The notes under the pieces were generated by a model. It was given only the letters and a program-made list of their open reading frames with translations, did no database searches and was not told where the DNA came from. A program made the translations under genes and the position numbers. Shown here piece by piece: positions 11,190-16,553 of a stretch of 64,000 nucleotides of DNA (its first letter is position 1; each line of letters opens with the position of its first letter). The stretch comes from an uncultured Bacilli bacterium (GTDB taxonomy: Bacteria; Bacillota_I; Bacilli_A; RF39; UBA660). The stretch covers positions 229,620-293,619 of the forward strand of contig CAKOSO010000001.1 of NCBI GenBank assembly GCA_934102355.1, read 5' to 3'.

Positions 11190-14100
11190 TTAACCATTCT
11201 TACTATTATTAATAGCTTGTTCAGCACGTTGATGCTTTTGTCGAGTCTTAGAATATTTAAATGTATTCAATTTGTCGCCAACCTTTGTACCTTTATATGT
11301 CTTACCAGAATTTGCTTCCTTAGCAGCTTTCCCAACACTAGACATTTTAGTTAAAGAAGTAAAGTCATAACTATAATCTTTGTCATCGGATTTTTCGTTC
11401 TTTCCGAGTTTACTAGAATAATAATCAACCGTACGATCATAATCATTCATAAGTGCTTTAGCAGTAGACTTATCCTCTTTATCATCCATAATTTCACTGA
11501 TACGATAAGCTTTTGCATTATCCAGTTCGTCAGCATAAACTTTACCATAGAAGGATCTTTCATCAGCAGTTAACTCTCTTTTACCATCAAATGTTCTACC
11601 TGATTCAAGCATATTATGTAAATCTTGAACCGATTTATTTTCTAAAGAATTACACAACTTATTTGCCTCAGCTTCACTACCAGCTAAAGATTTATAAGAA
11701 TCATCACTGGATAATTTTTTAGCGTCCATTCTATAGCCAGTTGCATTTTTAGTCACAATATCAGTTTCTAATTCTTTATCAATGCTTGCACGTTTCTTTT
11801 GTAAGTCCTCATATGCATCTTCAACTTCTTTATCTTTTTTACCAACAAACATTCCACCTAAGAATCCAGCTTGTAGTTGCGCACCAGTTCCTACTCCTTT
11901 ACGATATAAATCACTTCTTTTACTTGCTGTGGCCCAAGTACTTTTAGCGCCTGCCATAATATTTCCTTTTGAACCAGCTCCAAATCCGCGAAGTCCAGCA
12001 CCAACCATACCAGATGCACCACGAAGTCCTGCAGCAAACGCTCCTTTAGCGCCAAGTCCACCAGCATAAGCAGAATAAGCATTTCTTCCAACACCAATCG
12101 CAGAAGCGCCTACCGCAATACCTGCACCAGCAGCACCAAATGCAGCGGTTTTAAGCATCTTTCCAGCATCTTTAAACGAACCGGCCATATCACTTATTCC
12201 AAATATTTTAGAAATAAATGCTGGAGCAGCTTTTGCAAACGCTAAAACTCCAAGAATCATAAATATTTTTGTAAGTCCACTTTGACTAGAAATATTAAAT
12301 ATTGAAAGTATAATAGGTATTAACATAATTGCTAAAAGTTTAATAAATAAATCTGCAAATGTTGCACCATACATTTTTACCCATTGTGGGAATACTTTAT
12401 CTCTAGGATTAATAAATGATAATATCGCAACCGGAGAAATTATTTGTAATAATAATATTTTTGCATTTCGAACAACAACATCAACTGCTAACACTGCTAA
12501 TAAAACAAAAACAACAATTCCCATTATTAATCCAACAAAAGCAGAAATATAAATTTGATCATCATCATCAGCATCAGTTAGTATACTTTGACATGACTCA
12601 CCGCCATTGCTAGCACTACCATGCAAAATTTTTGAAGCATCTAAACATTTCATTACATCATCATCTATATTGGATTTAAGTATATCAATAAATGCAAGCA
12701 TCATTGTTCCAGCAAAAGAATTTGCTGCCTCATTTCCTCTTTTTTGTTTTGCCTTAAACTCTTCTATTGCTTCTTGGCTAGCCTTTACTTTTTCAGTTTC
12801 TTCTTCTACATAAATATTTAAATAATCTCCAACTTCACTTTTTGTAGTACCAGTTATTCCATAACTATCCCAATTATTAACCAACTCTGTTGCAGCACTC
12901 TTTAAAACATCATTCCATACTTCAGGATCAAGCGTTGAAAAAGCTGATTCAACTCCGTATCCATCATTGTTAGATTTTTTTCGAGCACAATCTACCATTT
13001 CATCAAATGATGTACTTGGGCATGTAAATCTTGGAGATGTATTTTTTTCTTTTCCTTGATCAGAAACTATACGCAATGTCTTTCTTCCATAAATCCAGCA
13101 TGTATATTCAGCCGGCTCTGAATAATTTCCATTTTGTCCATAAGCATTACTATTTTGTTCTTTAAAGCAATTTAAATCTCCATCGGAATTATTTCCTTCA
13201 AAAACTAACCATGGACACTTACCTTCATTAAGCATAGAATAAATATTATTTATATCATTATTCTTATAATTCATTTCAGTGCAACCATCACCACTACTCC
13301 AGCAACCAGCAGATTTAGCTACCATATTAATTTGAAATTTATCTAAATTATTCAGTGCTGATTGAGTTGTAGAAGCACCTTTTTCACTCAATAAACTTGA
13401 AATTTTATCCTTTAGTGCTATTTTCTGTGGCTCGCCTTCCAACTTTATTTGATTTTCTTCACCATCAACAAAGCTAATATTCATATACTTATTATCATTA
13501 CTACCTTTAAAATTAATCTTTACATATGTTTGAAATGGATTAATTAATACACCATTATCATCATATTTACTTCCAGAAGTTCCTATATATGCATAATAAC
13601 AGCTCATGTCTTTATTTAAAGTGCTTTCATAATATGTAACATAAAATTCAAATCGACAATTAGCAAATGTCCTATCATTATTATTACTACATATCCTTTT
13701 TACAAGAATATCTTTTAACTTACCATCTTTACTTGAATCAGAAGGATCAGCTATATAATAAACATTATAGCAATTATCATTGTTATCATAATCAGATTGA
13801 CTATTACATATTCCATAATTATGCATTGAACTATTTAATTTGTTTTTAAAAACATTTAAGCCGGCATAAGATATTAAAGTTTTAGTAGTACAACCTGAAT
13901 TTTGCACAGGATAACAAAATAGTACTTCTTTACCATTAAAATTTAACAATGTATCCTTAATAACTTTATTCATAGATTGTTCAATGGCAGACTTACTATC
14001 ATATTTACAATCTTCAGCATCTATTAACAGATTTGTCCACGTACCCTTTTCGCCAGAAATGTCAGTACTCATTATTAAAGATTTATATAGCCATGAACTA

Positions 14101-14630
14101 TCACATACATTTTCAGCCTTTACCTCAGGTACAATAAGCGAAAATCCTTTACTAAGTATTTTAGTAGCTAAACCTTCTTCATTTTTATAATAATATGATG
14201 TTCCAGCACCACCAAAAGAATCATCTGTACTTCCATTTGAAATAGATTTGGCAAAATTGCTAAGTAATCCATCATTTCCTACGACGACATTTTGTACTTT
14301 TTGTAAAAAATCAAATATAAATGGCATAGCAAGAACTAATACTATCGAAATAACAATTCTAGCTGCAAGTTTTCCACCGCCTGCACTCTTATCAGTTAAT
14401 TTATCCGGATCAACTAAATACTGTAACATGCTTATCACTATTCTAAATAGCATGAATATTCCAACAATTGAATATAAAGTTTTCCAAATAGAATTAATAT
14501 AAGTACTATCAAAAAAATTCGAACCCTGTGCTAAATCAAAAACAAATCCATACGCATTAGAAACCCATGAAAAAATTTGATAAAATAAACTTATAACGAA
14601 AGAGTTTACTCCAAAAAAATCTAAAAACAT
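11190..14630 (-). CDS. VirB6-like polytopic membrane protein (ConG/TcpH class) with a large Cys-rich ectodomain and Gly/Ala-rich plus charged C-terminal tail
   Basis: 1146 aa: 3 N-terminal TM helices, a ~570-aa extracytoplasmic domain with ~25 Cys, 4-5 more TM helices, a Gly/Ala-rich stretch, and a long Lys/Asp/Glu-rich tail. Confidence 0.55.
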   Translation of the reverse strand: MFLDFFGVNSFVISLFYQIFSWVSNAYGFVFDLAQGSNFFDSTYINSIWKTLYSIVGIFMLFRIVISMLQYLVDPDKLTDKSAGGGKLAARIVISIVLVLAMPFIFDFLQKVQNVVVGNDGLLSNFAKSISNGSTDDSFGGAGTSYYYKNEEGLATKILSKGFSLIVPEVKAENVCDSSWLYKSLIMSTDISGEKGTWTNLLIDAEDCKYDSKSAIEQSMNKVIKDTLLNFNGKEVLFCYPVQNSGCTTKTLISYAGLNVFKNKLNSSMHNYGICNSQSDYDNNDNCYNVYYIADPSDSSKDGKLKDILVKRICSNNNDRTFANCRFEFYVTYYESTLNKDMSCYYAYIGTSGSKYDDNGVLINPFQTYVKINFKGSNDNKYMNISFVDGEENQIKLEGEPQKIALKDKISSLLSEKGASTTQSALNNLDKFQINMVAKSAGCWSSGDGCTEMNYKNNDINNIYSMLNEGKCPWLVFEGNNSDGDLNCFKEQNSNAYGQNGNYSEPAEYTCWIYGRKTLRIVSDQGKEKNTSPRFTCPSTSFDEMVDCARKKSNNDGYGVESAFSTLDPEVWNDVLKSAATELVNNWDSYGITGTTKSEVGDYLNIYVEEETEKVKASQEAIEEFKAKQKRGNEAANSFAGTMMLAFIDILKSNIDDDVMKCLDASKILHGSASNGGESCQSILTDADDDDQIYISAFVGLIMGIVVFVLLAVLAVDVVVRNAKILLLQIISPVAILSFINPRDKVFPQWVKMYGATFADLFIKLLAIMLIPIILSIFNISSQSGLTKIFMILGVLAFAKAAPAFISKIFGISDMAGSFKDAGKMLKTAAFGAAGAGIAVGASAIGVGRNAYSAYAGGLGAKGAFAAGLRGASGMVGAGLRGFGAGSKGNIMAGAKSTWATASKRSDLYRKGVGTGAQLQAGFLGGMFVGKKDKEVEDAYEDLQKKRASIDKELETDIVTKNATGYRMDAKKLSSDDSYKSLAGSEAEANKLCNSLENKSVQDLHNMLESGRTFDGKRELTADERSFYGKVYADELDNAKAYRISEIMDDKEDKSTAKALMNDYDRTVDYYSSKLGKNEKSDDKDYSYDFTSLTKMSSVGKAAKEANSGKTYKGTKVGDKLNTFKYSKTRQKHQRAEQAINNSKNG

Positions 14631-14640
14631 AATTGCACCT

Positions 14641-15567: not shown

Positions 15568-15993
15568 TCAATTATTTTTACACTTCTTTCTAACATTTTT
15601 TGAATGTCTTATATCATACTCTATCATTGATTTATTTTGTAACTTTTTCATCTTATCATAATAAGTAACAATAGCACTTACATTTAATCTTTTTAAATTC
15701 ATTAGTACCTCTTCTTCTGTTACCCCAGTAAGATATGTAAAACATACACCTTTTGCTTCTCCAGGAAATATTTCCTTTTTTAATACTACATCATAAAACT
15801 TTCCATCTATTTCTTGTACATAAATTGGAAAACTTTGCCAAGTTGTTTTATATCTTTGAATCTTTTTCTTAAAAAAAGTTTCTTTTTTATATACATAATA
15901 AGGTTCTCTTAATTCTATTATCGCATTAAAATAATCAGGCCCATTTTGACTTTTATTATATCTTAAACAAGCCTTATAATATTTCTTTTCCAT
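15568..15993 (-). CDS. hypothetical basic protein (no TM, no recognisable domain)
   Basis: 141-aa ORF. Its stop overlaps the -35 region of the downstream operon. Confidence 0.45.
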   Translation of the reverse strand: MEKKYYKACLRYNKSQNGPDYFNAIIELREPYYVYKKETFFKKKIQRYKTTWQSFPIYVQEIDGKFYDVVLKKEIFPGEAKGVCFTYLTGVTEEEVLMNLKRLNVSAIVTYYDKMKKLQNKSMIEYDIRHSKNVRKKCKNN

Positions 15994-16106
15994 AACTATT
16001 TCCTTTCAGTGTTATATATTATCACATATTTTTAAAAAAAATGTCAATATTTGTTTCTTTTAGATAAACTAATATGATATTATATTAAAAGAAAGAAGGT
16101 AAAAAT

Positions 16107-16553
16107 ATGAAACACAAATTAGTTTTTATAATAATGGGAATTATAGTATTACTTGGGTCAACAATACTAATATTTGGAAGCAATAAAGAATACTTACATC
16201 ATATAACATTAAATGAAACAATAAAAAAAATAGAAAACAAAGAATCATTTATACTTTATATAAAACAAGATCAATGTTCACACTGCTTAGAATTTACACC
16301 AATATTTAAAAAGGTATTAGGAGAATATGAAATAGATGCTTACTATATAAGCTTAGATGATCTAACTAATGAACAAAAAACGTACACAAAAGAAGATGTA
16401 ACTATTAATGATTTAAACATAACTATAGATGGTACCCCTACAGTTGTATTTATTGATAAAGGGGTTGAAACTTCCAAATTAAATAGAATTGTTGGTTCAC
16501 AACAAAAAACTAATATAATTCAAAAACTAAAAACAGTAGGATATATCAAATAG
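16107..16553 (+). CDS. membrane-anchored thioredoxin-fold thiol:disulfide oxidoreductase (CxxC)
   Basis: 148 aa. N-terminal TM anchor, CSHC active-site motif and thioredoxin-fold spacing. GAAGGT RBS. Confidence 0.65.
   Translation: MKHKLVFIIMGIIVLLGSTILIFGSNKEYLHHITLNETIKKIENKESFILYIKQDQCSHCLEFTPIFKKVLGEYEIDAYYISLDDLTNEQKTYTKEDVTINDLNITIDGTPTVVFIDKGVETSKLNRIVGSQQKTNIIQKLKTVGYIK

Follow-up and report, generated by a model that had tools for sequence, protein, structure and literature searches.

We analysed a stretch of 64,000 nucleotides (hereafter the window) from an uncultured bacterium of the Bacilli (GenBank assembly GCA_934102355.1, contig CAKOSO010000001.1, positions 229,620 to 293,619) and found that it encodes a conserved chromosomal apparatus that resembles a type IV secretion system (T4SS) and is made up of two VirB2-like pilins, a VirB6-like protein, a VirB3-like protein and a VirB4 in two pieces. 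The largest of these components, a TrbL/VirB6-like polytopic membrane protein of 1146 amino acids (aa; 11190..14630, minus strand), carries a long Cys-rich insert between two blocks of transmembrane (TM) segments, and a membrane-anchored thioredoxin-fold protein of 148 aa with a CSHC motif is encoded close by on the plus strand (16107..16553). The explanation that we prefer, and that we consider moderately probable, is that the 1146-aa protein is a VirB6-type channel whose insert faces outward and contains nine disulfide bonds, and that the thioredoxin, which is PedC-like, forms or reshuffles the disulfides of the machine. An initial annotation, made from the same DNA without database searches, had already proposed a VirB6-like protein with a Cys-rich extracytoplasmic domain and an oxidoreductase dedicated to it.

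The 1146-aa protein is VirB6/TrbL-like and carries an orphan Cys-rich insert

The relationship to VirB6 was borne out by a Pfam match to TrbL_4 (PF19597; 36 bits against a cutoff of 27, E = 6.4e-9, residues 695–819), and the same family is precomputed for the homologues P0001–P0009 and P0011. Hydropathy indicated two plus about five TM segments, arranged as a pilin-like hairpin (TM block 1, residues ~51–73 and 88–106), the insert (residues 107–697; 12540..14312, minus strand), TM block 2 (~698–850) and a basic C-terminal tail of ~300 aa. NCBIfam models of proteins from Mycoplasma integrative and conjugative elements (ICEs) matched the protein below their thresholds (Mbov_0396, 28.8 against 70, E = 8e-7; MMCAP2_0566, 33.9 against 90). 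Among 5.8 billion proteins there were six full-length homologues, all of them metagenomic. Agrobacterium tumefaciens VirB6 also has a large loop after its second TM segment (TM2), and extended VirB6 proteins are known that carry extra domains. Like the extended VirB6 proteins (F TraG and the Rickettsiales paralogues), the window protein is a TrbL-domain polytopic protein encoded near VirB3-like and VirB4-like genes; its extension differs from those of the family in being a 590-residue orphan insert with 18 Cys in the loop, together with the 300-aa C-terminal tail.

The whole protein contains 19 Cys, of which 18 lie between TM block 1 (~51–106) and TM block 2, the remaining one being C993. The initial annotation had located the domain correctly between the TM blocks, and all the Cys motifs that it quoted are present in the protein, but its count of about 25 Cys was too high and its length of ~570 residues too short, since the insert spans 591 residues. 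The Cys density of the insert is 3.0%, compared to ~0.4–2% in most open reading frames (ORFs) of the window and 0–0.5% in the cytoplasmic VirB4 pieces. With an even spread assumed, the probability of finding 18 of 19 Cys within 591 of 1146 residues (52% of the length) is 6.5e-5 (binomial).

We then considered the pattern of these Cys in an alignment of seven sequences, in which ten insert Cys are invariant even at 35–40% identity. Every one of these homologues has an even number of insert Cys (18, 18, 18, 16, 18, 18 and 12), and losses and gains are paired: Cys 239 and 247 are jointly lost in three sequences, one of which (P0002) has gained a new Cys pair nearby, and both Cys 314/325 and Cys 443/450 are jointly lost in the most distant homologue. 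The Cys are spaced as C-x6-17-C, and the insert has no CxxC or CxxH clusters. Even counts, paired loss and gain and loops of 6–17 residues are the signature expected of disulfide pairs, and the insert is probably held by nine disulfide bonds. One stretch of it, residues ~169–274 (13809..14126, minus strand), is hypervariable: six close homologues have a mean pairwise identity of 0.17–0.55 here, while elsewhere they mostly reach 0.8–0.98. An exposed recognition surface would be expected to vary in this way.

Judged from its sequence, the insert is a recent orphan restricted to this lineage: a HMMER search against 1.84 billion representatives returned only its own family and one further protein, P0036, and the VirB6-like proteins of other lineages (600–990 aa, 1–8 Cys) have a short loop at the position of the insert. 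P0036 is a 1952-aa repeat protein whose E-value was built up from 15 copies of a 28-bit match, and we rejected it as a homologue, taking the match as spurious or, at best, as hinting at a beta-sandwich. A hidden Markov model (HMM) of the insert found no match in the ORFs of 145 related loci, and we therefore also rejected the idea that the insert derives by relocation from the Cys-rich pilin fusions or hydrolases found in other lineages.

The insert is predicted to face the outside of the cell

The hairpin of the 1146-aa protein is homologous to VirB2-like pilin hairpins, and we used this homology to orient the insert. In relatives, Sec signal peptides and Cys-rich domains of 250–400 residues precede the first TM segment (TM1) of pilin hairpins. 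In the window, a 332-aa protein with nine Cys (48260..49258, minus strand) consists of a pilin-like hairpin that is followed, after TM2 and a Gly/Ser linker, by a CHAP hydrolase domain (E = 1.6e-8, 35.3 bits against a cutoff of 26); it has a weak match to PF18895 at residues 26–85 and tblastn matches to the pilins of the window. Since a CHAP domain must act outside the membrane and signal peptides stand before TM1, the hairpin should have its N-terminus outside, its loop inside and its C-terminus outside, which would place the insert outside as well. The distribution of charge points in the same direction: Lys is abundant in the loop of the hairpin, acidic residues outnumber basic ones in the insert (83 D+E, 58 K+R), and the C-terminal tail has a surplus of basic residues. 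On the strength of hairpin homology and charge, the insert is predicted to face the outside of the cell.

The 332-aa fusion is probably the wall hydrolase of the machine. Its gene is unlinked, 32 kb from the cluster, and adjoins genes that we read from the sequence as topoisomerase-subunit-like, mutS-like and spore-germination-like. In relatives, a Cys-rich hydrolase is encoded inside the cluster, either after VirB4 or after the first pilin.

Pilin-like proteins have Cys before TM1 and after TM2

Two pilin genes precede the VirB6-like gene. The product of the 115-aa ORF (14641..14988, minus strand), a VirB2-like T4SS pilin paralogue, is a two-TM hairpin that matches PF18895 (T4SS_pilin) with 33.2 bits against a cutoff of 26.6; its likely start is M11 at 14958, which yields a protein of 105 aa, as in the homologues of L001, L002, L147 and L148. 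The 133-aa protein (15079..15480, minus strand) had no Pfam match, and tblastn identified it as a paralogue of the 115-aa ORF (E = 1e-8) and also matched it to the pilins of loci L025 and L026. The pilin-like paralogues with Cys-containing tails described in the initial annotation were thus confirmed, with two Cys in the 115-aa and four in the 133-aa protein. In the 115-aa pilin one Cys lies before TM1 and one after TM2, and the 133-aa pilin has C19 before TM1 and the tail C-W-A-C-A-T-E-P-G-G-K-L-C after TM2. The tail motif C-W-x-C-A-T-x-P-x4-C recurs in a subfamily of pilin-like hairpins (L066, L149, L151 and L070). When we compared all distinct hairpins from the window and the related loci, 64 of 65 had at least one Cys before TM1 and at least one after TM2, and the lone exception is cut by the end of its contig. 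This suggests a disulfide that would join the two outer ends of the pilin. The pilins VirB2 of Agrobacterium and TrbC of RP4 are cyclised head-to-tail, and we liken the putative pilin-end disulfide to these by our own inference. A terminator-like hairpin (15050–15072, minus strand) lies directly after the 133-aa gene, and the 133-aa type may for this reason be the abundant pilin.

The 148-aa protein is a thioredoxin that resembles PedC

The 148-aa protein begins with MKHK followed by a hydrophobic anchor, and its homologues share either the anchor or a lipobox (LTGC); its catalytic domain is predicted to lie outside the membrane. The active site C57-S-H-C60 and the cis-Pro loop T110-P111 are invariant in 24 sequences, and relatives have the motif variants CAHC and CKHC. 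The AlphaFold2 model (predicted local distance difference test score, pLDDT, 84.5) has a thioredoxin fold with a helix that starts at residue 58, and Foldseek against the PDB returned thioredoxins (target-normalised TM-score ~0.6–0.8, probability 1.0). In Pfam, the protein matched TraF (28 bits, cutoff 23) and Thioredoxin (25.1 bits, cutoff 23.5), the TraF match covering only profile positions 122–202 of 224, which are the thioredoxin part. The best NCBIfam model was PedC/BrcD (TIGR01295), with 53.4 bits below its cutoff of 120, and PF20207 (PedC-like) is precomputed, as a strong hit in the 75% and 86% identical cases, for homologues that are 75%, 86% and 99% identical, while it is absent from Pfam scans of the 148-aa protein itself. 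The F-type models scored far below their cutoffs (TIGR02738 TrbB, 26.5 against 132; TIGR02740 TraF-like, 25.6 against 232). By sequence, the nearest proteins are the a-domains of protein disulfide isomerase (PDI), a bacteriocin transport accessory protein (PDB 1zma) and PedC/BrcD.

Active sites of the CxHC type occur in oxidising enzymes (CPHC in DsbA and CGHC in PDI), whereas reductive thioredoxins have CxPC. The motif hints that the CSHC site may be of the oxidising or isomerising type. The closest homologue on a plasmid (41% identity) belongs to a glycocin F (gccF) cluster of the Clostridium perfringens plasmid NZ_CP148635.1 (L146), where it is one of two thioredoxins and where a glycosyltransferase and an ABC transporter are encoded as well. 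Like the thioredoxin of the window, the PedC/BrcD and glycocin F thioredoxins are small, anchored CxxC proteins, and they are encoded beside the secreted disulfide-containing product that they mature. Unlike them, the window thioredoxin has no bacteriocin, ABC transporter or immunity gene beside it; its neighbours are secretion or pilus machinery and uvrC.

The thioredoxin gene is a recurrent neighbour of T4SS-like and Tad-like genes

The thioredoxin gene is divergent from the head of the minus-strand gene run and convergent with uvrC. The starts of this gene and of the VirB6-like gene are 1.48 kb apart, in agreement with the ~1.5 kb and the opposite strand given in the initial annotation. We compared this arrangement with that of related loci; the contigs of P0001, P0002 and P0006 end before the position of the thioredoxin and were left out of the adjacency evidence. 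The order uvrC, thioredoxin, 141-aa gene and pilin is kept in L001 and L149, two further assemblies from the lineage (thioredoxin 86% identical in L149). In L151/L152 (thioredoxin 55% identical) the thioredoxin gene is divergent from a pilin gene of the 133-aa type and its other flank is a PRC-barrel gene with a sigma factor; in L066 (VirB4 84% identical) it again diverges from the pilin gene, and the other flank differs once more; and in the human-gut metagenome-assembled genomes (MAGs) L025/L026 (thioredoxin 43% and VirB4 71% identical) it is divergent from pilin, VirB6, VirB3 and VirB4 genes, with uppS on the other flank. Across the T4SS-adjacent loci, thioredoxin identity goes down to ~40%. 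L025 also encodes, after its T4SS genes, a 1188-aa wall hydrolase with 19 outer Cys, an ORF that is not found intact in L026.

In many other relatives, the thioredoxin heads a Tad-like pilus cluster that encodes an RcpC/CpaB-like protein, a T2SSE-type ATPase, TadB-like and TadC-like proteins, DUF5411, a bitopic protein with 4–6 Cys and a secreted protein of ~800–2000 aa with 15–61 Cys. As the ORF starts and signal peptides of these large Tad-linked proteins are uncertain, the parity of their Cys was left out of the evidence. Such a Tad-like cluster lies directly upstream of the T4SS-like genes in 22 of the 39 VirB4 loci that have at least 9 kb of upstream sequence, and in L023 thioredoxin, Tad genes and pilins occur in one stretch. 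In relatives (L003, L009, L015, L021, L023, L027, L029 and L072–L138), the Tad-like and T4SS-like genes thus make up a single supercluster with the thioredoxin at its head. No Tad-like genes were found in the 64 kb of the window. A divergent case is L057, which encodes a thioredoxin-like lipoprotein without CxxC (4801–5205) that recalls F TraF; its gene is divergent from genes for a bitopic 5-Cys protein, an 821-aa protein with 17 Cys and DUF5411, and uvrC is 3.3 kb away.

The initial annotation had named as a contrary outcome that the thioredoxin might be a conserved neighbour of uvrC. This is not what we found, as the other flank is uvrC, uppS, a PRC-barrel gene with a sigma factor or an unrelated gene while the T4SS or Tad adjacency is kept, indicating that the thioredoxin is a recurrent neighbour of the combined machine and not of uvrC. 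The co-occurrence that it had proposed to check was seen in four lineages with differing flanks, although it is not universal. The proposal of a dedicated oxidoreductase stood in part: the recurrent adjacency supports a partnership, but the link predates the insert, which is confined to one lineage. Because the link between thioredoxin and machine is older and wider than the insert, the enzyme would serve the whole machine and not the 1146-aa protein alone.

The T4SS-like core is conserved and chromosomal

The cluster is a run of minus-strand genes from 15993 to 7475 that encode, in order, proteins of 141, 133, 115, 1146 and 108 aa, the two VirB4 ORFs and a protein of 230 aa. The 108-aa protein (10848..11174, minus strand) has two TM segments and occupies the position of VirB3 upstream of VirB4; its matches were all sub-threshold (TcpE, E = 0.017; PrgI, which is VirB3-like, E = 0.11). 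The order VirB6, 108-aa two-TM protein, VirB4 is kept in ~70 loci. VirB4 is divided into an N-terminal part of 258 aa (10121..10897, minus strand; NCBIfam VirB4_plasma positions 90–277) and an ATPase part of 595 aa (8337..10124, minus strand; VirB4_plasma positions 298–891, E = 4.9e-102), the latter with Pfam matches to TraG P-loop, AAA_10 and CagE_TrbE_VirB. The two ORFs overlap by stop and start in ATGA, and as the same split is present in all of the ~80 related loci, it represents a natural two-part VirB4 and not a frameshift. Given the Mycoplasma-ICE matches, we also considered that TGA might be read as Trp (genetic code 4), and rejected it because the long ORFs are intact in code 11 and because the two VirB4 ORFs sit in different frames; code 11 gives a clean reading of the window (~26% G+C).

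Relatives of the VirB4 ATPase part occur in more than 396 metagenome loci, and the best 80 of these are 69–84% identical and have the same gene order, whereas plasmid VirB4s are only ~30% identical. The VirB4 relatives come from MAGs of uncultured gut Bacilli, Erysipelotrichaceae and 'Tenericutes' (L066–L145). The T4SS-like system is thus widespread, conserved and chromosomal in these groups. In a profile scan of the ORFs around the cluster (~30 kb of the window) we found no relaxase, coupling protein or integrase, and none turned up in the related locus L066 (21.8 kb), in which ezrA-like, miaA and lon genes come after the cluster. Within this scope the cluster does not qualify as a conjugative element, which is recognised by a relaxase, a coupling protein and integrase or replication genes.

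Two known systems resemble this core. Mbov_0396 (a TM protein) and Mbov_0397 (VirB4) of the Mycoplasma ICE are the best NCBIfam matches of the TM block and of VirB4, respectively. The scores, however, stay under the equivalog cutoffs (TM block, 28.8 against 70; VirB4, 342 against 590), and the window differs from the Mycoplasma ICE in its split VirB4, its use of code 11, the spore genes of the organism and the lack of other ICE genes (the CDS5 coupling protein and a DDE transposase). The second system is found in Patescibacteria, which have relaxase-less chromosomal T4SSs with arrays of VirB2-like (PF18895) pilins (PMC12102498); the system proved essential for epibiotic growth in the one strain tested. 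Like the window, they combine VirB2-like pilins, VirB3, VirB4 and VirB6 on the chromosome, without a relaxase and with several divergent pilin paralogues. The window comes from a different phylum (gut Bacilli), and its system is linked to a Tad-like cluster and a thioredoxin; disulfides and thioredoxin go unmentioned in the Patescibacteria paper (PMC12102498).

Other features of the locus

The first gene of the cluster encodes a lineage-specific 141-aa protein (15568..15993, minus strand) without TM segments, for which Pfam and NCBIfam gave no match and which is conserved in L001 and L149. The last gene encodes a 230-aa protein (7475..8167, minus strand) with no Cys, no TM segment and no family match in Pfam and NCBIfam scans; in relatives its position is occupied by a Cys-rich cell-wall hydrolase. 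The outer flanks are housekeeping genes, with rlmN, bacA and a metallophosphatase on one side and uvrC, rluD, lspA, mscL, a sigma factor and phosphoketolase on the other. A Bro-N domain protein and two ORFs without a family (352 aa and 306 aa; 2760–3614 and 3940–6346, minus strand) are encoded in the interval from bacA to the metallophosphatase; they may be left over from a phage or mobile element.

Both the 141-aa gene and the 133-aa pilin gene are preceded by near-consensus promoter-like sites (16018–16047 and 15511–15539, respectively, minus strand). These sites are suggestive only, as the promoter scan found 19 sites compared to 20.1 in shuffled sequence and thus no excess. A terminator-like site (16552–16574) lies at the end of the thioredoxin gene. 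Elsewhere in the window, three ORFs (49364–53041, plus strand) were read, without a family search, as spore-germination-like (GerA-type). The same kind of reading pointed to a surface protein of 716 aa (53045–55195, minus strand) that has a signal peptide and, at its C-terminus, an anchor. The GerA-type-like ORFs and the CotZ-like genes of relatives suggest that the source organism may form spores.

A proposed oxidative-folding enzyme for the whole machine, and alternatives

In the explanation that we prefer, the 1146-aa protein would be a VirB6/TrbL-type membrane channel subunit of a compact chromosomal T4SS-like apparatus. The loop after TM2, which matches the periplasmic loop of classical VirB6, would have been expanded in a small lineage to an outward domain of ~590 residues, most likely a wall-spanning or surface-exposed part such as a contact or recognition module. 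The thioredoxin, tethered at the outer face of the membrane, would oxidise or reshuffle the Cys of exported parts as they emerge; its clients would be the VirB6 insert, the pilin-like proteins (Cys before TM1 joined to Cys after TM2) and the Cys-rich wall hydrolase.

Exported oxidoreductases are known to serve a DNA-transport machine in a Firmicute: BdbDC of Bacillus subtilis forms the disulfide needed by the pseudopilin ComGC. BdbD differs from the window thioredoxin in that it is DsbA-like, has a DsbB-like partner (BdbC), is encoded apart from the com genes and is unrelated in sequence to the window protein. The closest analogy is provided by F-like T4SSs, in which the thioredoxin-fold proteins TrbB and TraF (and a plasmid DsbC) serve the Cys-rich TraN, TraH and TraU (PMC7555446). 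As in the window, such a system has its own exported thioredoxin-fold protein and parts with many conserved extracytoplasmic Cys. Unlike F-like systems, the window comes from a monoderm, its enzyme is anchored in the membrane and not periplasmic and lacks the N-terminal domain of TraF, and its Cys-rich clients would be a VirB6 subunit and pilins, not outer-membrane proteins.

Several results weigh against this explanation. The weakest step is topology: the positive-inside rule gave no clear answer for the short loops in TM block 2, whose fifth helix (829–850) is weak, and the orientation therefore rests mainly on the N-terminal hairpin. The extracytoplasmic position claimed in the initial annotation is thus supported by hairpin homology and charge and was not refuted, but it gains nothing from TM block 2. 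AlphaFold2 did not predict a fold for the insert from the seven-sequence alignment (pLDDT 34, predicted TM-score 0.24). The thioredoxin is missing from its site in L067, a close relative of L066; it is present within the 10-kb flank in only one of the 80 VirB4-centred loci; and of the 39 loci whose upstream sequence reaches 9 kb or more, 17 have neither Tad genes nor a thioredoxin in range. More distant thioredoxin homologues have no Cys-rich neighbours and are found in a housekeeping block, where a second PedC-like paralogue and a SpoU methylase are also encoded. As the VirB6 proteins of other lineages have so few Cys, the thioredoxin link did not arise for the 1146-aa protein. We saw no re-oxidising partner of the DsbB or VKOR type, and the organism is presumably an anaerobe. 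Finally, a thioredoxin-like gene in the conjugation cluster of the Lactococcus plasmid pNP40 has only a minor effect on transfer (PMC8194271).

These points bear first of all on the possibility that the thioredoxin is a general extracytoplasmic oxidoreductase (or one for bacteriocin or spore maturation) and that its adjacency is an accident of gene order conserved within the lineage, which we regard as unlikely, though it is the strongest of the alternatives. Besides the housekeeping block and L067, it draws on the CotZ-like proteins of ~10% Cys that adjoin some relatives, on the bacteriocin clusters in which cultured relatives are found, and on the position of the gene on the opposite strand with its own terminator-like hairpin. 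An accident of gene order does not, however, explain why the divergent T4SS or Tad adjacency recurs at identities down to ~40% while the other flank has changed at least four times, nor why the homologue without CxxC retains its position. Moreover, a general enzyme would still act on the clients of the machine, and so this alternative differs from the preferred explanation mostly in exclusivity.

A different activity of the same enzyme seems improbable to us, namely that the thioredoxin is reductive (like ResA, StoA or CcmG) or acts only as a chaperone like the CxxC-less TraF. In the F system the isomerase TrbB is kept reduced by DsbD, and TraF has no CxxC (PMC7555446). The L057 homologue has likewise lost its CxxC and kept its position, and an anoxic habitat without a visible DsbB or VKOR would suit a reductive role. 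On the other side, the clients have Cys in even numbers and gain or lose them in pairs, which points to disulfides that are formed, and the CxHC sites (CSHC, CAHC and CKHC) resemble those of DsbA and PDI and not CxPC.

It is very improbable that the insert Cys bind metals or remain free thiols. This idea would fit an organism that is probably a strict anaerobe, given that only two of 20 anaerobic Firmicutes surveyed had in their exported proteins the even-Cys bias that is typical of disulfide use (PMC2823432) and that Firmicutes mostly keep Cys out of such proteins; the initial annotation had remarked that disulfide-rich extracytoplasmic domains are unusual in anaerobic Firmicutes. The lack of CxxC and CxxH, the spacing of 6–17 residues, the even counts, the paired changes and the adjacent exported CxxC thioredoxin all speak against it. 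That the cluster is a decaying ICE remnant with a non-functional 1146-aa protein, as the missing relaxase, coupling protein and integrase, the two VirB4 ORFs, the Mycoplasma ICE proteins as best family matches and the nearby Bro-N gene might suggest, is hardly credible with all ORFs intact, housekeeping genes on both flanks, the same order, split and 69–84% VirB4 identity in the best 80 of more than 396 loci, and plasmid VirB4s so distant.

Implications

The principle of an oxidoreductase that serves a secretion machine is known from F-like systems; what would be new here is the monoderm and presumably anaerobic setting, the PedC-like enzyme, the Cys pair of the pilins and the VirB6 insert. 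Taken to its full extent, the explanation leads to a picture that we put forward as speculative and rather doubtful: spore-forming, uncultured gut Bacilli of low G+C may possess a vertically inherited, relaxase-less T4SS/Tad-like surface machine that needs extracellular oxidative folding although its host is an anaerobic Firmicute, in which a thioredoxin-made disulfide would join the ends of the pilin and do the job of cyclisation in Agrobacterium and RP4, and in which a hypervariable VirB6 tip with nine disulfides would recognise a target cell or surface.

The locus offers a concrete, testable case of machine-linked oxidative folding in a monoderm, which parallels TrbB and TraF of F in a different architecture. 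In an apparently anaerobic gut lineage, secretion or pilus parts have conserved, paired outer Cys, and an exported CxxC thioredoxin is kept alongside them. For a T4SS it would be unusual to carry a recognition module as a hypervariable orphan insert within its channel subunit, and the wider T4SS-like/Tad-like system merits more attention than the 1146-aa protein alone.

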